Program-made: the position numbers and the translations under genes
Shown: piece by piece, positions 3,359 through 32,516 of the stretch
How positions within the stretch are numbered: the first letter of the stretch is position 1
How the letters are laid out: each line of letters opens with the position of its first letter
DNA from: Spirochaetia bacterium
Lineage (GTDB): Bacteria; Spirochaetota; Spirochaetia; UBA9216
Length of the DNA stretch: 64,000 bases
NCBI GenBank assembly: GCA_963675665.1
Contig: OY776510.1
Coordinates: forward strand, 1,856,001 to 1,920,000
Direction of reading: 5' to 3'
The notes under the pieces: model-generated
What the model was told of the DNA's origin: nothing
Seen by the model: only the letters and a program-made list of their open reading frames with translations
The model's database searches: none

Positions 3359-4324
3359 ATGAAACGTTTTTTTTGCTCCGTCATCATCTTTTCTGTTCTG
3401 ACAATGTCTCTTATGGCGGAAAAACCGGTTACAACCGTACTTGACTTTCAAACGAACGGTATATCTGAAAATGATATGAAATCAATAATTTCCTTTCTGT
3501 CTGCCGAACTTTTTGCTACGGGAAAATACAGGGTTATCGATACTGCTCAGCGTGAGACCATACTACATGAGCTTGAGTTCTCGGCTTCCGGCTGTACCGA
3601 TGAAAGCTGCCAGCTTGAAATAGGCAAACTGCTTTCGGCCGAGTATATTGTAGTCGGTGATATTGCGGTTGTAGGTACCCGTTATATACTTTCCGCCAGA
3701 ATTCTTGAAACTGAAACCTCCGAAACAACCGGAATAGCCAGGGGCGTCTATAAGAACTTTGATGAGCTTGTGGATGATATGTCTTTATTCGCCGCCGGGC
3801 TTTCGGAAAACAGTGAAACAGTTTCTGCTGAACCGGGGCTCGATGCTGCTGTAGAGCCTGAACCTGCCGGGACCGTAGAGCCTGCGGTTTTAACGGAAGA
3901 AGAACCGGTAGCCGAAAAAACCGCGGCAATACCTTCAGGCAGGCGGACAGTCTGGGCCTGGTCGACTATGGGCGTCGGCGTTGCTGCAGCGGGACTCGGC
4001 GGGTATTTAATGTATTCAGCATTCAGTTATAAAACGTCAACAGTAGATCCTGCCTATACCGCTTACATTGAAGCGGAATCAGATACTTTTGAAACCTCGG
4101 CAATAGATTATTATAACGATTTTTGGACAGCCTACGATTCCGCATACAGCAAGTTTGCAGGAAAGCTTATTCTTTCATCAGTACTTTCCGGTGTCGGGCT
4201 GGTATCTGTCGGAGTATCGGTCTATTTATTTTTAACCGATGCAAAAGATGACGATCCGGAAATATCATTATTATTTCTGCCTGCAAATGACGCGGCAACG
4301 GTTTCGTTCAGGATAAGGAAGTAG
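3359..4324 (+). CDS. Exported CsgG/HfaB-like-domain protein with a C-terminal hydrophobic/membrane region
   Basis: Signal peptide; TVLDF, GKYRVIDTAQRETILHELEFSASGCTDESCQLEIGKLLSAEYIVVG; two Gly-rich hydrophobic segments; GGAG RBS. Confidence 0.75.
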   Translation: MKRFFCSVIIFSVLTMSLMAEKPVTTVLDFQTNGISENDMKSIISFLSAELFATGKYRVIDTAQRETILHELEFSASGCTDESCQLEIGKLLSAEYIVVGDIAVVGTRYILSARILETETSETTGIARGVYKNFDELVDDMSLFAAGLSENSETVSAEPGLDAAVEPEPAGTVEPAVLTEEEPVAEKTAAIPSGRRTVWAWSTMGVGVAAAGLGGYLMYSAFSYKTSTVDPAYTAYIEAESDTFETSAIDYYNDFWTAYDSAYSKFAGKLILSSVLSGVGLVSVGVSVYLFLTDAKDDDPEISLLFLPANDAATVSFRIRK

Positions 4325-4333
4325 GTGGTTATT

Positions 4334-6091
4334 ATGAAATTAGTCAAAAGTATTATAATAGTTTCTGCTGCCGTACAGCTGATTTTTTTCGGCTGTAAAC
4401 TGCCGCGTGATAATATAAATGATCCCCTTTCTCCCGCCAATGATGATGGTAAATCTCCGGCAATAGTAAGCATAACCCCGGCCGGCGGTGCCGCCGATGT
4501 CAGCTCGGATACGTCCATCGTTGTGACCTTTTCCGAAACTATGGATAGAACTTCAGTTGAAGCTGCATTCAGCCTGGCAGGTACTGGTTCCGTCAGCGGA
4601 ACATTCAGCTGGGCAGTTGCTGATACTGTTATGACATTTACGCCTGATGATCTGCTTGCATACTATCAAAACCATTCAGTAGTCATCAGCTCGGACTCAG
4701 CTGATGCGTTCGGCAACAAGCTGGCTACGGACTGGTCAGGCGATTTTACAAGCAGCGGGGCTGCCGGAAGGCTTGATACGGACTTTAACGGACAGGGATA
4801 TGTACTACATCACAATGCGGCCGGCGGAAACGGTACCGATTCGGGAAACGATATTGTAATAGATAATAACGGGAAACTTGTTATAACCGGTCACAGCGAC
4901 AATGCCGCGGGGAATAAGGACATGGTCATCTGGCGATATAACAGCAACGGGAGTCTCGATACTACATTCAATTCTCCGAACGGCTATGTAGTTCATGACA
5001 ATGCTGCAGGCGGCGGGGGTGATGATTATGGCAACGGGATTGCGATAGATACCGACGGCAATATTGTCGTATGCGGCTACAGTTTTAATGCCTCCGGCGA
5101 TGAGGATATGGTGATTTGGCGGTATAACAGCAGCGGGAGCCTCGATACAACATTCAATTCTCCGAACGGCTATGCAGTTCACGGTAATGCAGCGGGGGGC
5201 AACGGAGCGGATATAGGCAATGATATTGCTGCAAATAACACTGGTAAGATTATCGTTACGGGAGAAAGCATGAATGATACCCCCGGTGTTTTCAGAGATA
5301 TGGTAATCTGGCAGTATAACAGCGATGGAACTCTTGATACAGGCGGGTTTAACTCTCCGGAAGGTTATACATTATTTAACAGTGTTGGAGGAGCCGGCGG
5401 GAGCGGTGAATACCGGGACTATGGATACGATATCACACTGAGCAGCAGCGGCAAAATCCTTGTGGCAGGAAAAAATTACACTTATGTCCCCGATCCGGAT
5501 GAAGAGGACATGATGCTTTGGAGGTACGACACCGACGGAGGTCTTGATGATTCCTTCAACGGTCAGGGCTGGGCAACGCACGACAATGCAGCCGGCGGAA
5601 ACGGGTTTGATTTGGCCTACGGAGTAGCGATTGACCGTGACAGCAGGATTCTTGTAACCGGTAACAGCCACAGCGGCGCAAGCTATGATATGGCGACCTG
5701 GCGCTACAACAGTAACGGGACAATTGATACGACATTTAACGGACAGGGCTGGGTAACTCACCATGATGCAGCCGGCGGAAACGGTTATGACACCGGTGGA
5801 ATTGTATCTGATGATTCAGGTGGAAAGATAGTGGTGGCAGGTAAAAGCATCAGTGAGGATTATGATGAGGATATCGCGATCTGGCGATATAATCACGACG
5901 GAAGCCTTGATACCAGCTTCGGCGCTGTTGATAATAAATGCGGGTGGGTAACTCACAACTCCGCCGCCGGAGGAAATTCTTCTGAGTCAGCTAATGGTAT
6001 GGTATTCGATTCCGATGGGAAAATCGTCCTTGTCGGCAGCAGTAAAAATGCCTCAGGCAATTCCGATATGGTGATCTGGCGGTATGAATAG
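4334..6091 (+). CDS. Lipoprotein with an SbsA/Big_5 Ig-like domain and a delta-60-type repeat beta-propeller
   Basis: Lipobox IFFGC; PAIVSITPAGGA..IVVTFSETMD..TFTP Ig domain; about 7 repeats DMVIWRYNxxGxLDTTFN. ATG 4334 preferred over GTG 4325. Confidence 0.85.
   Translation: MKLVKSIIIVSAAVQLIFFGCKLPRDNINDPLSPANDDGKSPAIVSITPAGGAADVSSDTSIVVTFSETMDRTSVEAAFSLAGTGSVSGTFSWAVADTVMTFTPDDLLAYYQNHSVVISSDSADAFGNKLATDWSGDFTSSGAAGRLDTDFNGQGYVLHHNAAGGNGTDSGNDIVIDNNGKLVITGHSDNAAGNKDMVIWRYNSNGSLDTTFNSPNGYVVHDNAAGGGGDDYGNGIAIDTDGNIVVCGYSFNASGDEDMVIWRYNSSGSLDTTFNSPNGYAVHGNAAGGNGADIGNDIAANNTGKIIVTGESMNDTPGVFRDMVIWQYNSDGTLDTGGFNSPEGYTLFNSVGGAGGSGEYRDYGYDITLSSSGKILVAGKNYTYVPDPDEEDMMLWRYDTDGGLDDSFNGQGWATHDNAAGGNGFDLAYGVAIDRDSRILVTGNSHSGASYDMATWRYNSNGTIDTTFNGQGWVTHHDAAGGNGYDTGGIVSDDSGGKIVVAGKSISEDYDEDIAIWRYNHDGSLDTSFGAVDNKCGWVTHNSAAGGNSSESANGMVFDSDGKIVLVGSSKNASGNSDMVIWRYE
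4765..6088 (+). repeat. Intragenic tandem repeat, about 7 units of about 60 aa (beta-propeller blades)
   Basis: Recurring LDTxFNxxxGxxxHxNAAGGNGxD...GKIxVxG...DMxIWRY; near-identical DNA ctcgatacwacattcaattctccgaacggctatg at about 4955 and 5141. Confidence 0.85.
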
Positions 6092-26143: not shown

Positions 26144-27346
26144 ATGAAGATATTAATTTTAGGCGGCGGCGGGTTAATGGGTTCCGGTACTGTGAGGGAT
26201 CTTGTTTCCGGCCAGTCCTCCGGTTCCGGTATTAAAGAGGTAATAGCAGCTGATTATGACATTGCTGCGGTTAGGAAACTTGCAACTGAGCTTGGTGATC
26301 CGAGAATTACACCGGTCGGGGTTGACGTCAGGGACGCAGCCGGCGTAAAGGACCTGCTCGAAAAGGCGGATCTGTGCATAAATGCTGTTCCCACTTTTTT
26401 GGATCTGCAGCTTGATATTTTTCATTACTGTCTTGAAACGCACACGCCCTATGTTGATTACGGCGGAATGGGAATATACACTGAAAAACAGAAAGCTGAA
26501 CATGATAAATGGGTTGCTGCCGGCGTTCCGGCAATTCTCGGGCTGGGAGCTGATCCGGGAATGTCCAATGTTATCTGCCGTTCTGTGGCCGATGAACTTG
26601 ACACGATCGACAGTATTAACCTTTTTTGGGCGGCGAAGCTTGACGGACCGGATAACCCGGTGCTGGTGCCGGCATACAGTACTTTAACTCTGCTTGCAGA
26701 GTTTGCCCGCCCGAGCAAACAGTTTTACGACGGAAAACTGGTGGAGATGCCGCCGCAAAGCGGTAAAGTTACAAAAATTCTGCCGGAGCCTTTCGGCAAA
26801 ACGGAATTTATGCATTCGATGCATTCCGAACCGTTAACCGTACCTTTTTCAAGGGGTATTAAAGAAAAGGGAATCAGGGAAATGACATGGCGGCTGCATC
26901 TGCCCGAATATGAAAATTCATTATGGAAATCCATGGTTTCAGCCGGGTTCGGAGATTTTGATGATCCTGTTGATTTTCATGGTAATAAAATTATGCCCGG
27001 AGAGTTTCTGGAATTATTGATAAAAAGAAATATTGAGCGGAACAGCTCGCTGATTCCGGAACAAACCTATTATGAGATTCATTTCGCAACGGGCATCGGA
27101 ACAATAAACGGTATGCCGGCTGAGGTTACAACAACAGTAATGGTGAATCCGGATCCCTTATATGAAAAGTATAATGATGCGGGAACATCAATGAACTGTT
27201 CAATAGGAGCACAGATGCTTGGTCTTGATCTTGTCCGGCCCGGAGTCTGGGGGCCTGAAGAGTGCCTTGATGTCGGCAGATATTTTGAAGAATTGAGAAA
27301 AAGAAAATTTGAAATCAAAACTGAAATCACAGTTATTAAAAAATAA
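26144..27346 (+). CDS. Saccharopine dehydrogenase-family oxidoreductase, copy 1
   Basis: ILGGGGLMG, YVDYGG, GLGADPGMSN, HSEPLTVP, GVWGPE. Confidence 0.85.
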   Translation: MKILILGGGGLMGSGTVRDLVSGQSSGSGIKEVIAADYDIAAVRKLATELGDPRITPVGVDVRDAAGVKDLLEKADLCINAVPTFLDLQLDIFHYCLETHTPYVDYGGMGIYTEKQKAEHDKWVAAGVPAILGLGADPGMSNVICRSVADELDTIDSINLFWAAKLDGPDNPVLVPAYSTLTLLAEFARPSKQFYDGKLVEMPPQSGKVTKILPEPFGKTEFMHSMHSEPLTVPFSRGIKEKGIREMTWRLHLPEYENSLWKSMVSAGFGDFDDPVDFHGNKIMPGEFLELLIKRNIERNSSLIPEQTYYEIHFATGIGTINGMPAEVTTTVMVNPDPLYEKYNDAGTSMNCSIGAQMLGLDLVRPGVWGPEECLDVGRYFEELRKRKFEIKTEITVIKK

Positions 27347-27367
27347 AACGCTTTTAAGGAGATAAAA

Positions 27368-28627
27368 TTGAAACGAGTATTGGTCATCGGTGCAGGTGCA
27401 CAGGGCGGACCCTGTGCTTCGATACTTGCCAGGGGTTCCGAAATGGAGGAAGTTATTCTTGCCGATATTGATATGGATTTATGCCGAAAGGTTAAAAATA
27501 AAATCGGAAGCGGCAAGGTTTCTGCCGTGAAACTAAACGCGGGCAACGTAGAAGAGATTGAAAGAGCTGCCCGGGGGTGTGATGTTGTCATTAACCTGAC
27601 CCTTCCTGTATTCAGCGAAAAAATAATGCAGGCAGCTTTGAATGCGGGGGCCCATTATGTGGATACCTCGTTCGGCGAACCCGAACTGATGGATATCTGC
27701 GCAAGGGACAACATATTGTCCCAGATTATAGAAGGACGAGACCTTCTGCTTGATAAGGAATTTAAAAATGCCGGCTTGACAGCACTTGTCGGCTGCGGCG
27801 GAACCCCGGGTTTTCTTAATGTGGGCGTAAGATACCTGTGCGATAAACTCGATGAAGTTGAAGAAATACGAATGAAATTCGGCGAAGGTCCTGTAGGGAA
27901 TCAGCCTGAAGAACTTGTCGCCGGAGCATGGAATCCCGGATGGAACCCTTTCAGGGCCCTTTGGGGTTATGCGGTTGAACCCGCAATATTCAGAAACGGC
28001 AAATACGAAACATCTCCGATATTCGGCGAACCTGAAGTGTACAAGTTTCCCGATCCTCTTGGAGAGATAGCAATATGTCACCACCAGCACCAGGAGCAGG
28101 TTACGCTGCCGTTTTTTATCGGAAAGGGAATAAAGTACTGTGAATTTAAATACCCGGTTGATAATCAGGCTGCAACCTTCGTTAAAATGGGATTTGGTAA
28201 ACCAGATACAATAACGGTGAATGGTCAGGAAGTCTCACCAAGGGACGTTCTTATGAAAATGATGGTGCCGCCTGGTAATGTTTTTCTGGAAGAAAATGAG
28301 AAAACCGCGGCGGAACCTCTTGAGGCCACACAGATATGGGTAGTTGAAGTTAAGGGCCTTGAAGGCGGAAAACCCGTTACCTATACCTTGTCGGAGCCCT
28401 ATACCTTCATCCTGACAACCGAGGATAAAATAAAGGTTTACGACCTCTTCGGCTCCACTGATGTCGGCGTGGCCCTGCCTGCCGTTATCGGTGCGAAGAT
28501 GTGTTCATCGGGACGTACAGAATCAGGGACAATATCCTCCGAATGCCTCGATCCGAATATTTTTCTGAAACTTCTGGCGGAAACCGGCGTCCCCCTTTCC
28601 GTGGAAGATAGAGTCGTAAGGAGTTGA
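27368..28627 (+). CDS. Saccharopine dehydrogenase-family oxidoreductase, copy 2
   Basis: VIGAGAQG, HYVDTS, GCGGTPG, HQEQVTLP, SECLDP. Confidence 0.85.
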   Translation: MKRVLVIGAGAQGGPCASILARGSEMEEVILADIDMDLCRKVKNKIGSGKVSAVKLNAGNVEEIERAARGCDVVINLTLPVFSEKIMQAALNAGAHYVDTSFGEPELMDICARDNILSQIIEGRDLLLDKEFKNAGLTALVGCGGTPGFLNVGVRYLCDKLDEVEEIRMKFGEGPVGNQPEELVAGAWNPGWNPFRALWGYAVEPAIFRNGKYETSPIFGEPEVYKFPDPLGEIAICHHQHQEQVTLPFFIGKGIKYCEFKYPVDNQAATFVKMGFGKPDTITVNGQEVSPRDVLMKMMVPPGNVFLEENEKTAAEPLEATQIWVVEVKGLEGGKPVTYTLSEPYTFILTTEDKIKVYDLFGSTDVGVALPAVIGAKMCSSGRTESGTISSECLDPNIFLKLLAETGVPLSVEDRVVRS

Positions 28628-28631
28628 CTGT

Positions 28632-29849
28632 ATGTTTAAATACCTGATAGTCGGCGCCGGGGCACAGGGCGCCGCTTGCGCGTCAATTCTGGCCAATGAT
28701 GAGGAAACGGAAAAAGTTGTTCTGGCCGATATAAATATTGATCAGGCCCGAAGGGTCGTTGAACACATCGGATCAGCAAAATTTTTTGCAGAACGGGTAG
28801 ATGCTTCTGACGTAGAAGATATTGTAAGGCTTGCGAACGGGGTTGATATAATCCTTAATTTTGCTCTTCTGAAATTTAATCCGCAGATAATGCAGGCGGC
28901 AATGAAAGCCGGGGTGCATTATATTGATACGGCTTTTGATAACCCTATCTGGAATGAGCTTGAAACTGAATTCCCGCTGAAAGTCGGGCTGCAGTTTGAA
29001 GAGAAAAATATTACCGGAATTGTCGGTTGTGGAGGAGCCCCGGGGCTTATTAATGTGTTCGCCAGGCTTATCTGCGATACTATGGATACAGTCGAATCGA
29101 TAAAACTGAAAGTCGGCCACAGGGACCTGGCTAAAAAGGACAGGATAACAACCTGGATCCCATCATGGTGCCCGGAAATAGCATTAACGGATTATGCCGA
29201 TCCTCCGACAGTTTTTACAAACGGGAAATATACACAGGTTCCGGCATTTGCCGGGCAGGAGGAATATGAATTCCCCGGGCCGGTGGGAAAGAACCTGATA
29301 GCGCACCATCACCATGAAGAGCCGGTGACCCTTCCCAGGTTTATCGGAAAGGGTGTAAAGCATGTTGAGTTCAAATACGCGGTGGATCTTAACGCGGCGT
29401 CTTTTGTAAAGATGGGGTTTGCCGGTTACGACAAGATAAACGTAAAGGGCGTAGAAGTAGCGCCTATCGATGTATTAATGAAACTGGTAAAGCAGCCTTC
29501 GGACAATTTTTTCACGGAAAATGAAGAAACAGCGGCAAAAGATTCAACAATTCTGCACCCCTACCTGGTTGAAGTGGAAGGCGCCGTGAACGGTAAAATA
29601 TATAAACACAAGCTGTGGTATCCGTGTTCATTGACATCAAGCGGCAGTGAAAAACTGGAAGTCTTCAGGAAATTCGGAACAACAAATATTGCTGTCGCGT
29701 TGCCTGCTGTCGCCGGCGCAAAAATGATCCTCAAAGGAAAAGCCGATTTCGGAGTTATAGCTCCGGAATGTCTTGATCCGAAAGCATTCCTTAACGAAAT
29801 GGCTGAAACAGGGTGGGCCGTAAAGTATGAGGAAGAAATCGGTCGATAG
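28632..29849 (+). CDS. Saccharopine dehydrogenase-family oxidoreductase, copy 3
   Basis: IVGAGAQG, HYIDTA, GCGGAPG, HEEPVTLP, PECLDP. Confidence 0.85.
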   Translation: MFKYLIVGAGAQGAACASILANDEETEKVVLADINIDQARRVVEHIGSAKFFAERVDASDVEDIVRLANGVDIILNFALLKFNPQIMQAAMKAGVHYIDTAFDNPIWNELETEFPLKVGLQFEEKNITGIVGCGGAPGLINVFARLICDTMDTVESIKLKVGHRDLAKKDRITTWIPSWCPEIALTDYADPPTVFTNGKYTQVPAFAGQEEYEFPGPVGKNLIAHHHHEEPVTLPRFIGKGVKHVEFKYAVDLNAASFVKMGFAGYDKINVKGVEVAPIDVLMKLVKQPSDNFFTENEETAAKDSTILHPYLVEVEGAVNGKIYKHKLWYPCSLTSSGSEKLEVFRKFGTTNIAVALPAVAGAKMILKGKADFGVIAPECLDPKAFLNEMAETGWAVKYEEEIGR

Positions 29850-29872
29850 ACCTCCAGAAAGTATTTAAAAAT

Positions 29873-29908
29873 GGGAATCTCTAAAAACTGCAGTTTTTAG
29901 AGATTCCC
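29873..29908. repeat. Perfect 36-bp palindrome (REP-like or bidirectional terminator)
   Basis: GGGAATCTCTAAAAACTGCAGTTTTTAGAGATTCCC between convergent genes, followed by a second stem ggtttccccg/cggggaagcc. Confidence 0.85.
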
Positions 29909-29966
29909 CAATATCAAAACCGGTTTCCCCGTTGTTTTCGCTCAGACATCGGGGAAGCCTTTTACC

Positions 29967-30578
29967 CTACTTGACCTTTATATAGTAATAAACAGCAACG
30001 TTTTTGGGACGGGTTTCGGGGCCTGTGCGCGGCGTCCCGTTTGTTCCGTCTGTGTAGATTTCTGCAAACGAATCCTGATTGTTAAATCGTGCTATTGCGT
30101 AAGATCCGTTACCAATGTTTGTATACTCGTCGTTGCCTAATGCCTCAGCTCCAACTGACAGGGTGTGACCCTGGAACTGATCCTCCTGGAAATCTCCGAC
30201 GGATCTTGTGTCTGGGTCCTGATACCCGTCGTTTCTGCTCTCGTTAAGGCCTCTCAGAAACATTCCCCTCAAGTCGGGCAGATTTGCCTTACCCGTTGCG
30301 GCGGTGTATTCGGCAGTGGCTGCCGAGCCGTCGGCAAGAGCATACCTGTCTCCTGCTGTCGCATACATCTGAACGGGAGTAAGCATGGAGGTTATTATCG
30401 TACCTACAGGGGCTTCTCCGGCATTTAAAGTTTTAATATAATTCAGCAGTGTGTTAAAGTTTTCGTTCATTGAGGCTGCCGACACCACCTCGCCTGCTGA
30501 AAAGATGTTGGGTCTAGTCTGTGCAGAAAGATCTAAACTGATCAGGATAAGACAAAGAATAACAATTATTTTTTTCAC
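29967..30578 (-). CDS. Secreted phage tail-collar-domain protein A
   Basis: GTG start after GGAG; signal peptide ..LDLSA|Q; FSAGEVVSAASMNENF; LPDLRGMFLRG; DQFQGH; ETRPKNVAVYYYIK. Confidence 0.85.
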   Translation of the reverse strand: MKKIIVILCLILISLDLSAQTRPNIFSAGEVVSAASMNENFNTLLNYIKTLNAGEAPVGTIITSMLTPVQMYATAGDRYALADGSAATAEYTAATGKANLPDLRGMFLRGLNESRNDGYQDPDTRSVGDFQEDQFQGHTLSVGAEALGNDEYTNIGNGSYAIARFNNQDSFAEIYTDGTNGTPRTGPETRPKNVAVYYYIKVK

Positions 30579-30597
30579 TTTTATTAACTCCTGATAT

Positions 30598-30670
30598 ATC
30601 TTAGAGTTAGATTGGATCATTGTCAATGAAAATTACTATCCTTGTGTTCTTGGATAACTCATGGTACTCT
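30598..30670. promoter_or_regulatory. Divergent sigma70-like promoters of the tail-collar module
   Basis: Minus strand TTGACA(30626-21)-17-TAAGAT(30603-598); plus strand TTGTGT(30642-47)-17-TACTCT(30665-70), which is weaker. Confidence 0.6.
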
Positions 30671-30679
30671 TTAAACATA

Positions 30680-31549
30680 ATGAAAAAAAGATTACCTTTC
30701 AGATTAAAATTTATTTGGTTTACATGTTTGATTCCGTTCTTTTTTGCTGTTGAAATATCTGCTCAGGAATCTAATCCCATCATAACTGTTCTTGATTTTA
30801 AAACCGGCAGTATTGCCGAAAGCGATATGCAGCTCATTGTGACTATGCTTTCAACTGAACTGTTCAATACCGGAAAATACACTGTTATTGATGCCAGTCA
30901 ACGAGATGTAATTCTGGCCGAGATGGCATTCTCTCTTTCCGGATGTGCTGACGAATCGTGTCAGTTGGAAGTAGGAAAAATGCTATCGGCGGATATGATT
31001 GTTGTCGGAAGCGTCGGCAGGGCCGGAAGCAGACTGATTCTTGATACGAAGATCCTGAGGACCGAGACAGGAGAAACTGTATATACGGCCAACGGTAAAT
31101 ACGTTGAAACTGATGAGCTGATCGATGATCTCCCTTTTATTGCACTGAAACTGACCGGAGATACTGCTGCCGGGCTCGAACCGGTTGAAAAGCAGCTGAC
31201 GGCAAGAGAAATTACCGGCTGGTCGCTAATCGGCGGCGGTGCTGTTCTGGGCATGATCGGAGGGGTTCTTATGGCTACTGCAGCTGATTATAAAATTTCA
31301 ACGGTCGATGTTTCTTACCAGGCTTATCAGGATGCCTGGTACGGGGATGATTTTGAGACCCTTCGCGCAGATTATCTTGATAATCTTGAATCGTATAAAC
31401 TGAAATCGATATCGGGTACGGCTGCTGCAGGAGCAGGCATTGGATGTCTGGCTGCGGGTATTGTTCTTCTGCTGTTGCCCGATACGGCTGATAACAATGT
31501 CAGTGTAGAAGCAGGGCCTTCGGCTTTGGCTTTCAGGTTGTCGTATTAG
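30680..31549 (+). CDS. Exported CsgG/HfaB-like-domain protein, paralog of 3359..4324
   Basis: Signal ..EISA|Q; TVLDF, GKYTVIDASQRDVILAEMAFSLSGCADESCQLEVGKMLSADMIVVG; hydrophobic C-terminal segments; ends AFRLSY. Confidence 0.78.
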   Translation: MKKRLPFRLKFIWFTCLIPFFFAVEISAQESNPIITVLDFKTGSIAESDMQLIVTMLSTELFNTGKYTVIDASQRDVILAEMAFSLSGCADESCQLEVGKMLSADMIVVGSVGRAGSRLILDTKILRTETGETVYTANGKYVETDELIDDLPFIALKLTGDTAAGLEPVEKQLTAREITGWSLIGGGAVLGMIGGVLMATAADYKISTVDVSYQAYQDAWYGDDFETLRADYLDNLESYKLKSISGTAAAGAGIGCLAAGIVLLLLPDTADNNVSVEAGPSALAFRLSY

Positions 31550-31558
31550 GGGGCCGGA

Positions 31559-31750
31559 ATGAAAAAAATAATCTTGTTGATATTGGTTGCAACGGTATTT
31601 TTACTGACGACATGTAAAAATTTATGGGATTTTGAGCAGCTGCCTCTGAACAATATTGCAGATCCATCAGCTGCTGAATATATAGACAGATTAACCGTTA
31701 CCGCTGTCTGGGAGGACAGCCAGTGGGACGGCGCCGTTTTCGGCGAATAA
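31559..31750 (+). CDS. Small lipoprotein (63 aa) with C-terminal WEDSQWDGAVF motif
   Basis: MKK, hydrophobic core and LLTTC lipobox; AGGGGG RBS; tightly spaced in the operon. Confidence 0.8.
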   Translation: MKKIILLILVATVFLLTTCKNLWDFEQLPLNNIADPSAAEYIDRLTVTAVWEDSQWDGAVFGE

Positions 31751-31778
31751 TATAAGGAAAGGTCTTTAAGGAAAGAGT

Positions 31779-32423
31779 ATGAAAAAATCATTATTAATTA
31801 TTATCATCGCTGCTTTGTTTTCAGCGGCAGTCACAGCACAGAGCATCCCGAACAGCTTTACCGCCGGAGATGTAATTTCGGCCGCGGATATGAATGAGAA
31901 CTTCCAGGCGCTTCTACTTTTAATCAATCAGGTTGAAGGCGGCGGCACTGTAGGCGATGTGGTCTGCTCAATGCTTACCGAAGCCCAGTTTCAGTCCCAG
32001 AGAAGTACCGACTGGGTTCTGATGGACGGTCGTGATGTAAGCGGGAGCCAGTATGAGATAGTTACCGGGAACAGTTCACTCCCGGATGCCCGCGGAACGT
32101 TCCTGCGTTCAAAGAACAACGGGCGGGCGGACGGCGACGAAAACCCTGCAGGAGATCTGCCGCTTGGCACTTATGAGGCAGATCAGTTTCAGGGGCATTA
32201 TCATGATTACAGCGTCACCTCGACAGCCTTAATTATTAAGGATGAACCTGAAACGTCAAGTTGGGTTGAATCAGCAGCTAATGATTCGCAGCATGTAGCA
32301 TGGAACAGCTCAAATTTCAGCATAACAGCCCCTGCAACTGACGGTATCAACGGCACCCCGCGTACCGGAGACGAAACGCGTCCCAAGAGCATAACAGTTA
32401 ATTTTTTTATTAAAATAAATTAG
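31779..32423 (+). CDS. Secreted phage tail-collar-domain protein B
   Basis: Signal ..AVTA|Q; FTAGDVISAADMNENF; WVLMDG; LPDARGTFLR; DQFQGHYH; ETRPKSITVNFFIKIN. Confidence 0.85.
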   Translation: MKKSLLIIIIAALFSAAVTAQSIPNSFTAGDVISAADMNENFQALLLLINQVEGGGTVGDVVCSMLTEAQFQSQRSTDWVLMDGRDVSGSQYEIVTGNSSLPDARGTFLRSKNNGRADGDENPAGDLPLGTYEADQFQGHYHDYSVTSTALIIKDEPETSSWVESAANDSQHVAWNSSNFSITAPATDGINGTPRTGDETRPKSITVNFFIKIN

Positions 32424-32516
32424 GGGTGCAACAGGCATAATTCCTTTTCAGGCGACTTGCAATCAATAAATAATTCTCTTATCCTGTATTAAAATCCGCT
32501 TGTTGAAGGAGAACCC

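Follow-up and report, generated by a model that had tools for sequence, protein, structure and literature searches.

What is the function of a protein of only 63 amino acids whose gene stands between that of an envelope protein and that of a secreted protein resembling phage tail fibres? This question is raised by a stretch of 64,000 nucleotides from a Spirochaetia bacterium (contig OY776510.1 of assembly GCA_963675665.1, positions 1,856,001 to 1,920,000 of the forward strand), which was analysed as a whole and is called the window here; the genome that holds it has a size of 5.15 Mb and is labelled G000. The product of the 63-codon open reading frame (ORF) at 31559..31750 of the window (+ strand) is named lipo63, and the two fibre-like proteins that flank it are named collar_up and collar_dn. 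An earlier note, made from the sequence of the window, had proposed that this small lipoprotein is an adaptor with two motifs, namely a C-terminal repeat of aromatic residues (hereafter the pentad) for a fibre and an N-terminal tag for a CsgG-like partner. Our analysis indicates that this reading is well supported by comparison, although physically unproven, and that lipo63 probably tethers collar fibres to the cell envelope. The full form of the proposal, in which lipo63 is a lipid-anchored adaptor whose pentad holds the base of a collar trimer and whose tag docks an LpoB-fold protein, appears to us moderately likely.

A mini-lipoprotein with a C-terminal aromatic pentad

The lipo63 gene starts 9 nt past the stop of an LpoB/CsgG-like gene (30680..31549) and its own stop lies 28 nt ahead of the collar_dn gene (31779..32423), with no terminator-like site between these three co-directional genes. 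Its 63-aa product (MKKIILLILVATVFLLTTC followed directly by KNLWDFEQLPLNNIADPSAAEYIDRLTVTAVWEDSQWDGAVFGE) begins with a K-rich n-region and a hydrophobic core that lead to the lipobox Cys19 (MKK-IILLILVATVFLL-TT-C19). Lipoproteins were recognized by a positive n-region, a hydrophobic h-region and a lipobox Cys within ~15-35 residues, and lipo63 shows the sequence features of a signal peptidase II substrate, i.e., a charged n-region, an h-region and a lipobox ending in Cys. The lipoprotein ORF of the earlier note is thus borne out, with its signal, its lipobox and both motifs at the places given there (residues 28-36 for the tag and W51-E63 for the pentad); the mature chain, put at about 45 aa, was a close estimate, the exact length being 44 aa. 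We conclude that lipo63 is a genuine gene and not a remnant.

The C-terminus of lipo63 ends with ...WEDSQWDGAVFGE before the stop codon and contains the pentad W51-E-D-S-Q-W56-D-G-A-V-F61-G-E (31709..31747, + strand), a candidate fibre-attachment peptide. Such an arrangement is rare in the genome. Among all genome ORFs of at least 60 aa, the pattern W[DE]...WD...[WFY] was matched once, by lipo63, and the wider pattern [WYF][DEG]...W[DEG]...[WYF][DEG] gave no match in host ORFs of at least 100 aa (2.47 M residues) and one match, again lipo63, in host ORFs of at least 60 aa (3.73 M residues). A lipoprotein start combined with a pentad in the last 16 aa was found in exactly one ORF of the whole 5.15-Mb genome, that of lipo63.

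The same pattern was then looked for in phage loci, which were chosen solely by the fibre N-terminus (F.AG..I.A..MN.NF) or by a collar domain, after which the gene upstream of the fibre was inspected (61 loci, whose ORFs of 100 aa or more add up to 190,254 residues over six frames). The triple pentad [WYF][DEG]...W[DEG]...[WYF][DEG] had five matches in these loci, and all five fell in the gene that immediately precedes the fibre gene, which agrees with the link that the earlier note had drawn between pentads and phage proteins encoded upstream of fibres starting FxAG..A..N.NF. In 43 kin marine loci (L072-L114), the gene of a protein of ~526 aa stops 1-4 nt ahead of the fibre start, except in one locus (L095), where it runs 40 nt past the called fibre start. 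The protein carries the pentad in every case (43/43), in the form ...S-R-W-D-T-A-K-W-D-D-A-D...W-D-A-I and with about 63-75 residues left to its C-terminus; the first pentad unit reads W-[DE] in 29 loci and W-G or W-N in the other 14. This ~526-aa protein matches a PHROG family described as 'virion structural protein', and its sole tblastn match among named phages is a gene annotated as 'phage stabilization protein'. More distant hubs have the units I-W-D-T-S-E-W-A (L123/L124), L-W-G-E-G-R-W-G-S-G-Y-W-G (L127) and V-W-G-A-M-V-W-G-E-D-V-W-G (L125), and in an alignment of 33 hubs (20-34% identity) only 29 columns are invariant, among them two Trp with a spacing of five residues. The 463-aa upstream protein of locus L128 contains T-W-D-E-S-L-W-D-E-E-T-W-D, whereas L122 lacks the motif and L126 is unclear. 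The small proteins ahead of fibre genes to which the note had pointed were also found, with the pentad at their C-terminus, both in the spirochaete genomes described below (40-64-aa lipoproteins in 10 genomes) and in locus L071. In the latter, a 163-aa protein with a zinc-ribbon-like N-terminus follows a portal-adaptor homologue and ends with ...YDESRWDRCLYG (...G-I-Y-D-E-S-R-W-D-R-C-L-Y-G, then stop) 34 nt before the gene of a 799-aa fibre, which starts ...PNTFVSGEVIYAADMNENF (...P-N-T-F-V-S-G-E-V-I-Y-A-A-D-M-N-E-N-F). Sequence searches of the PDB with the phage upstream proteins gave no useful match and no solved structure, and the AlphaFold model of the L127 hub was poor (mean predicted local distance difference test score, pLDDT, of 50.8), with the pentad region 475-494 below 50 and in coil.

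A high-GC, bacterial-looking metagenome contig (L065) encodes an 813-aa lipoprotein (254-2695) with Listeria-Bacteroides-type repeats that ends with ...A-L-W-G-T-A-V-W-D-I-S-E-W-D-P before its stop. Three membrane-anchored proteins are encoded downstream, in which a coiled-coil-like leader precedes the fibre N-terminal motif. This contig is apparently a second, non-spirochaete cellular context for the pentad.

Relatives of the collar proteins were detected in 40 of the 401 Spirochaetota genomes sampled, G000 included, and 14 genomes in which the match had a fibre-type N-terminus or was full-length were examined with wider flanks. A family of mini-lipoproteins was defined by a length of 40-64 aa, a lipobox and the pattern Ar-[DNGE]-x3-Ar-[DNGE]-x3-Ar (Ar, aromatic residue) in the last 14 residues. 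In 10 of the 14 genomes, a 40-64-aa lipoprotein whose last 13-14 residues read Ar-[DNGE]-x3-Ar-[DNGE]-x3-Ar-x is encoded next to the fibre gene(s), giving 11 proteins in all, such as those that end, up to the stop codon, with ...A-K-W-N-E-A-K-W-N-T-D-K-W-D (G411), ...A-R-W-D-Q-A-V-W-D-Q-S-T-W-E (G406), ...G-K-F-N-S-S-C-W-D-R-A-K-F-D (G394) and ...G-V-W-D-N-T-R-F-D-K-S-K-F-G-N (G240). Nine of these 10 genomes also have an LpoB-like gene in the locus, as detected with a hidden Markov model built from the LpoB-like alignment (E 6e-5 to 2e-18). lipo63 falls within this definition and has both neighbours, the LpoB-like and the collar gene. A profile of the 11 other mini-lipoproteins placed lipo63 first among the 56,864 ORFs of its own genome (E=0.0068). 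A search with the single lipo63 sequence returned itself alone at near lengths and no match among longer proteins, and a search with the family alignment retrieved 17 proteins, all of them unnamed or 'hypothetical' apart from the label YceK that one source gives to one of them.

Two arrangements of these loci may be distinguished. In the first, the mini-lipoprotein gene lies directly upstream of the fibre gene(s) (G411, G358, the first copy in G240, and G406), and the order in G406, i.e., LpoB-like gene, mini-lipoprotein, fibres, is that of the window. In the second, the order is fibre, LpoB-like, mini-lipoprotein, extracytoplasmic function (ECF)-sigma-like and anti-sigma-like genes (G394, G352, G235, G338, G285, G400, and the second G240 copy). 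The second arrangement, in which the small gene is associated with the LpoB-like and sigma genes more than with the fibre, favours a different function for the same family: the pentad might bind the LpoB-like protein or its beta-barrel, insert into a membrane, or signal to the ECF sigma/anti-sigma pair rather than hold a fibre. We regard such a role as rather unlikely, considering that mini-lipoproteins directly precede fibre genes in the four loci of the first arrangement, that the phage pentad proteins have no LpoB-like or sigma partner and always have a downstream fibre, and that the structure of the phage Pa223 hub (see below) shows how three W-[DG] units act.

In several related loci (L161, L162, L163, L165, L172, and L159), an ECF-sigma-like gene encoding 175-204 aa is followed by a putative anti-sigma gene encoding 242-357 aa, which suggests that the set of fibre, LpoB-like protein and mini-lipoprotein may feed a transcriptional signal in these organisms. 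The window locus has no such pair.

The N-terminal tag and the LpoB-like partner

The second motif of lipo63, LPLNNIADP (31640..31666, + strand), comprises residues 28-36. Its core N-x-x-D-P, 12-17 residues past the lipid-bearing Cys, occupies N32..P36, at +13 from Cys19. The earlier note had pointed to its likeness to LPRDNINDP in another lipoprotein of the window, and reading both sequences supports this: the 585-aa lipoprotein encoded at 4334..6091 (+ strand), which contains delta-60 repeats, has the tag C-K-LPRDNINDP, and its gene is the partner of a paralogous LpoB-like gene at 3359..4324 (+ strand), the second such pair in the window. In a six-frame translation of the whole genome, the pattern [LIVMF]P..N[IVLM].DP had five matches, among which only lipo63 and the 4334 lipoprotein are plausible genes, the other three being in frames of 20-52 codons.

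The genome is rich in paralogues of the LpoB-like gene and has at least nine one-to-one pairs of an LpoB-like and a lipoprotein gene, two of them in the window (3359-6091 and 30680-31750) and the others at positions 1313359, 3279530, 3282288, 4178742, 4543370, 4997345, and 5036476 of G000 C1. In the nine pairs, the lipoprotein gene starts -3 to +22 nt from the LpoB-like stop, and the tag, which reads N-x-x-D-P and once N-P-F-D-T, lies 6-20 residues past the Cys. The paired lipoproteins are otherwise unrelated (63 to 836 aa) and contain delta-60 repeats, FN3/PKD-like repeats, and FG-GAP-like, DNRLRE or GldK-like domains. Across the whole genome, 8 of 308 lipoproteins predicted by regular expression carry N..DP no farther than 35 aa from the Cys, and an LpoB-like gene lies directly 5' of the genes of 7 of these 8; the 4334 protein is absent from this set since it was missed by the crude signal-peptide rule, and one lipoprotein adjoining an LpoB-like gene is without the exact N..DP motif. 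When a tagged pair is defined by a start about -10 to +26 nt from the LpoB-like stop and by N..DP 6-35 residues past the Cys, lipo63 belongs to this class, with a gap of 9 nt and its tag at +13.

Using the LpoB-like alignment, we gathered 51 outside loci, mostly from metagenome-assembled genomes (MAGs) of Spirochaetales together with a few from Myxococcales and one from Chitinivibrionales, of which 46 were informative. The next gene encodes an N..DP lipoprotein in 18 of the 46 and a lipoprotein with a variant of the tag (N-x-x-D, often RDNPLD..FW) in 7, while an untagged lipoprotein-like ORF follows in 6 (some of them false calls) and none in 15. Because of this recurrence and of the placement of 7 of the 8 tagged lipoproteins in the genome, the N-x-x-D-P tag is, as far as sequences tell, a mark of lipoproteins paired with the LpoB-like family. 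The adjacency of the genes further suggests that the tag probably docks lipo63 to the protein encoded just upstream.

The pairing of LpoB-like proteins with tagged lipoproteins, as it recurs in Spirochaetales MAGs, looks like a system in its own right. One of the tagged lipoproteins, that of pair I (G000 C1 4541173-4541631, L009), is just 152 aa long, and repeats of the same type go on in an overlapping 463-aa ORF of a different frame, which is likely due to a frameshift or a sequencing error.

Two other explanations of lipo63 may be considered against these pairs. One is that it is a chance ORF that is not translated, as its shortness, the unusual Thr at position -1 of its lipobox (the 11 family members have SC, AC or GC) and the lack of any database homologue in a single-sequence search might be taken to indicate; since lipo63 occupies the same slot, 2-22 nt past the LpoB-like stop, as the partner genes in the eight paralogous pairs, carries two independent rare motifs and ranks first against the family profile, we consider this highly improbable. 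The other is that lipo63 is the truncated remnant of a longer tagged lipoprotein, with 'LTVTAVWEDSQW' as the start of a lost FN3-like domain. That the eight other tagged partners in the genome all have 152-836 aa speaks for a remnant, as do the best, non-significant local match of lipo63 (phmmer E=0.7), which is to the N-terminus of a 517-aa partner (DNQNDPGAAEYLDYYV versus NNIADPSAAEYIDRLT), and the lack of the island in five genomes of the same genus. This explanation is also improbable, if less so, given that 10 other genomes together encode eleven lipoproteins of 40-64 aa that end in the same pentad, that no longer homologues were found, and that no leftover of a longer gene is present downstream, because the collar gene starts 28 nt after the lipo63 stop.

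The protein encoded upstream of lipo63 (30680..31549, + strand) is an envelope protein of 289 aa with a signal peptide, a TolB-N/LpoB/PelC/CsgG-fold domain, a linker, two long hydrophobic helices and a short C-terminal strand that ends in Y; a G-C-x-D-E-x-C motif is located in the fold domain. Its Pfam matches were LpoB (27.5 bits), DUF3280 and CsgG (21.9 bits), the last of which is marginal, covering only 57 residues with a cut-off of 20.8, and scores lower than LpoB. An AlphaFold model made with a 19-sequence alignment (mean pLDDT 79) predicts an alpha/beta domain at ~34-158, the linker, two helices of ~40 residues and a poorly defined C-terminal strand, and the Foldseek neighbours of the domain were the TolB N-terminal domain, PelC, GNA1162, LpoB and CsgG (E 2e-5 to 3e-4). 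In the same alignment, a conserved lipobox is absent from this protein. Because the model and the Foldseek matches indicate an LpoB-type fold class plus a helical hairpin, we assign the protein, on the strength of its predicted structure, to the CsgG/LpoB fold class and not to the CsgG channel. The 'CsgG-like partner' of the earlier note is therefore kept as to its fold class and given up as to CsgG proper.

The identification as a CsgG channel was rejected, as two predicted helices of ~40 residues stand in place of transmembrane beta-hairpins and there is no conserved lipobox. In other spirochaetes, relatives of the LpoB-like protein (L165, L168, and L174) have a C-terminal half of ~180 residues with an alternating hydrophobic pattern ending ...LF, which resembles an outer-membrane beta-barrel. 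The helical hairpin and this barrel-like half may be two anchoring solutions for one periplasmic domain.

Collar proteins, conservation and the variable island

collar_dn (31779..32423, + strand) is a secreted fibre-like collar protein of 214 aa that matches PHROG tail collar fibre and T4 gp12 profiles. After removal of its signal peptide it begins with SIPNSFTAGDVISAADMNENF, and its fibre N-terminal motif IPNSFTAGDVISAADMNENF (31845..31904, + strand) is the proposed receptacle for the pentad; it also carries G-H-Y-H and has the C-terminus ETRPKSITVNFFIKIN. The second protein, collar_up, is encoded divergently at 29967..30578 (or to 30626) on the - strand, probably from a GTG start at 30578 that gives 203 aa, as in the database relative P0029; once its signal peptide is removed it begins with TRPNIFSAGEVVSAASMNENF, and it has the same N-terminal motif and shares 40% identity with collar_dn. 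Both have Sec signal peptides, and the genome contains no further gene of this kind. They match PHROG tail collar fibre families (phrog_523 and others, E 1e-9 to 2.5e-17) and the T4 gp12 short tail fibre (profile E 3e-11 to 4e-6), with no Pfam-A match at E<=0.1. In 44 viral loci of IMG/VR, fibre proteins start with a sequence that matches the collar N-terminus; a tblastn search of named phages with the 38-aa fibre N-terminus gave no match. The stretch D-Q-F-Q-G-H-Y-H-D-Y of collar_dn (window 32196-32210) differs in collar_up, where a deletion of 9 residues follows directly on the first His.

Conservation was judged from contigs of public sequencing runs, a small sample of low depth. A near-identical strain (X3) has 18 differences in 2,501 nt, and among the 16 differences listed none is in lipo63. 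A seawater metagenome contig (X7) is ~95% identical, with 24 substitutions and 15 gap letters over 31360-31948. Within lipo63 it has T31691C and A31693G (TTA to CTG, leaving Leu45 unchanged), A31722G (Q55R) and A31750G (TAA to TAG), so that the length and motifs of the ORF are kept and the sole amino-acid change is the conservative Q55R, which yields S-R-W-D, the version found in phage proteins. The density of substitutions is 4/192 in lipo63, 8/199 at the end of the LpoB-like gene and 10/170 at the start of the collar gene, and a 14-nt deletion starts right after the lipo63 stop. This pattern fits a protein under constraint. The earlier note had made its proposal depend on the conservation of the ORF, and in X7 the frame is retained with one residue changed. 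The finding that length, stop and motifs are kept, although the spacer past the stop has lost 14 nt, is a further argument against a truncated remnant, and that the substitutions are synonymous or conservative argues in the same way against a chance ORF.

The region 26144-32516 of the window, which contains three saccharopine-dehydrogenase-like genes and the island of collar, LpoB-like, lipo63 and collar genes, is variable: it was found at ~99% under a second organism label and at ~95% in the seawater metagenome, and it was not found at the syntenic place in five genomes of the same genus, which share only the DeoR/dehydrogenase side. Right after collar_up, at 29860-29920, there is a 36-nt palindrome with a perfect stem (hairpin 29873-29908), followed by a T-run. 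The hairpin is repeated, with 82-100% identity, at about 15 further sites of the genome and in genomes of the same genus, and by its sequence it is probably a REP-like or terminator repeat.

Proposed role and comparison with known systems

The proposed mechanism may be outlined as follows. The last 13 residues of lipo63, W-E-x3-W-D-x3-F-G-E, would be a cellular version of a phage fibre attachment peptide, in which three aromatic residues five positions apart form a pseudo-threefold plug. One trimer of the flanking collar proteins would receive this plug in its N-terminal base (SIPNSFTAGDVISAADMNENF...), while the N-x-x-D-P tag would dock lipo63 to the LpoB-fold protein encoded upstream, such that the LpoB-like protein, lipo63 and the collar trimer together would make up an envelope-anchored fibre. 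For the spirochaete system, we infer the contacts, the 1:3 stoichiometry, the lipidation, the membrane and its face, and the role, whether adhesion or sensing.

The docking principle itself is already known from phage structures. According to a cryo-EM preprint on phage Pa223, each trimeric fibre is joined to the hub by one Fiber Attachment Loop (residues 354-387), and W363, W370 and W377 of the hub protein gp59 form a pseudo-threefold surface that plugs the trimeric fibre base, a 3:1 mismatch (bioRxiv 10.1101/2025.06.11.659172). In LUZ24 gp56 (513 aa), Trp residues are present at exactly 363, 370 and 377, within N-L-W-D-D-D-P-N-P-W-D-T-D-T-S-V-W-G-E-G, and gp56 aligns from end to end with the PDB chain 9nwi_Y (513 aa, E=0). 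The neighbouring fibre gene product, LUZ24 gp57, is a tail-collar protein of 215 aa with an N-terminus unlike that of the fibres described here. In the baseplate of phage E217, a loop from a gp45 monomer fits the trimeric N-terminal interface of the fibre (PMC10329688). From Pa223 it is established for the heptad-spaced version that a single chain with three W-[DG] units plugs one fibre trimer, and the pentad-spaced version appears from our loci to go with another fibre N-terminus, the one found at the lipo63 locus.

Several points weigh against the reading of lipo63 as a fibre-holding adaptor. The pentad patterns were shaped and widened after examples had been seen, and the independent phage lineages number only about five, because the 43 marine phage loci are close kin. 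In most of the related spirochaete loci the mini-lipoprotein gene stands between the LpoB-like and ECF-sigma-like genes and does not abut the fibre gene, and no mini-lipoprotein was present in the fetched flanks of 4 of the 14 genomes (G408, G434, G324, and G270, the last two limited by contig ends) or of a second G406 locus. With the C-terminal 17 columns of the family profile alone, lipo63 still ranks first but with E=7.4. The N..DP tag is particular to lipo63 within the family, as its relatives lack it and start with C-[SK]-D-x-x-[DE]-[DE] instead. The island and the collar relatives are absent from five genomes of the same genus, the shared DNA lying only to the right of the island, and true orthologues are thus lacking beyond near-identical strains. 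Finally, the spacing in lipo63 is 5 and not 7, its third aromatic residue is Phe and not Trp, as compared with Pa223 and LUZ24, and the N-terminus of the fibre comes from a different sequence family.

A wider and more tentative reading, which we consider possible rather than probable, is that spirochaetes took over phage hub-fibre docking for their envelope: a lipid-anchored peptide of ~13 residues would replace the tail hub on an LpoB/PelC-fold base, the pentad would be a portable socket code, and domesticated phage parts would form a surface organelle for adhesion or sensing, a role drawn from the ECF sigma/anti-sigma pair downstream in relatives. If this is true, bacteria reuse a phage fibre joint outside any phage, 13 residues suffice to hold a trimeric fibre and provide a minimal model of the 3:1 symmetry-mismatch joint of phage tails, and three repeats of Ar-[DG]-x3 are a general 'socket code' for fibres starting F.AG..I.A..MN.NF. 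The pairing of pentad and fibre N-terminal motif could be used to predict which phage protein carries which fibre. In addition, a small gene family is defined that annotation misses or leaves unnamed, and it is linked to a widespread, unstudied class of LpoB-fold envelope proteins in spirochaetes. In the open-access and bioRxiv literature we found neither a free-standing lipidated version of the peptide, nor its pairing with domesticated fibre-like and LpoB-fold proteins, nor the pairing of the pentad with F.AG..MN.NF, nor any paper on spirochete tail-collar or tail fiber-like lipoprotein systems; on CsgG-like proteins with spirochete lipoproteins there was no relevant work among the titles and abstract openings listed.

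Compared with known systems, the 289-aa protein shares the fold of TolB-N, PelC, LpoB, GNA1162 and CsgG over residues ~30-160. All of them belong to the envelope, and several bind peptides of partners or assemble into rings beneath the outer membrane; CsgG is a lipoprotein with two transmembrane beta-hairpins that build a nonameric barrel, whereas the 289-aa protein has a linker rich in P and E, then two helices predicted to form a hairpin, and a short strand at its C-terminus. The collar proteins resemble the collar/receptor-binding domain of T4 gp12 in their LPD.RG and ETRPKN-type motifs and, in collar_dn, in an H-x-H similar to the metal site of T4 fibre tips; in contrast to gp12, they have ~190 mature residues and Sec signal peptides and are encoded on a bacterial chromosome without other phage genes nearby.

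The phage upstream proteins (the P22-gp10-like 'stabilisation'/hub proteins of L072-L114, L123 and L127, and those of L125, L128 and L071) share with lipo63 the 5-residue spacing and the W-[DG] units, and the fibres encoded downstream have the same N-terminal motif. They are, however, parts of the virion and have neither a signal peptide nor a lipobox. E217 gp45, in the part of its description available, has a long loop (76-123) in a myovirus baseplate, and no aromatic pentad is reported there. In the loop of Pa223/LUZ24, described as a pseudo-threefold hydrophobic plug, three aromatic residues likewise stand in a short single-chain stretch, each followed by D or G (W-E, W-D and F-G in lipo63), and the fibre has a C-terminal tail-collar domain; LUZ24 gp57, with 215 aa, is similar in size to the collar proteins here. 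That loop is internal to a beta-propeller hub of 513 aa, whereas the pentad of lipo63 is the free C-terminus of a 44-aa lipopeptide, and the Pa223/LUZ24 system is viral whereas that of lipo63 is cellular.

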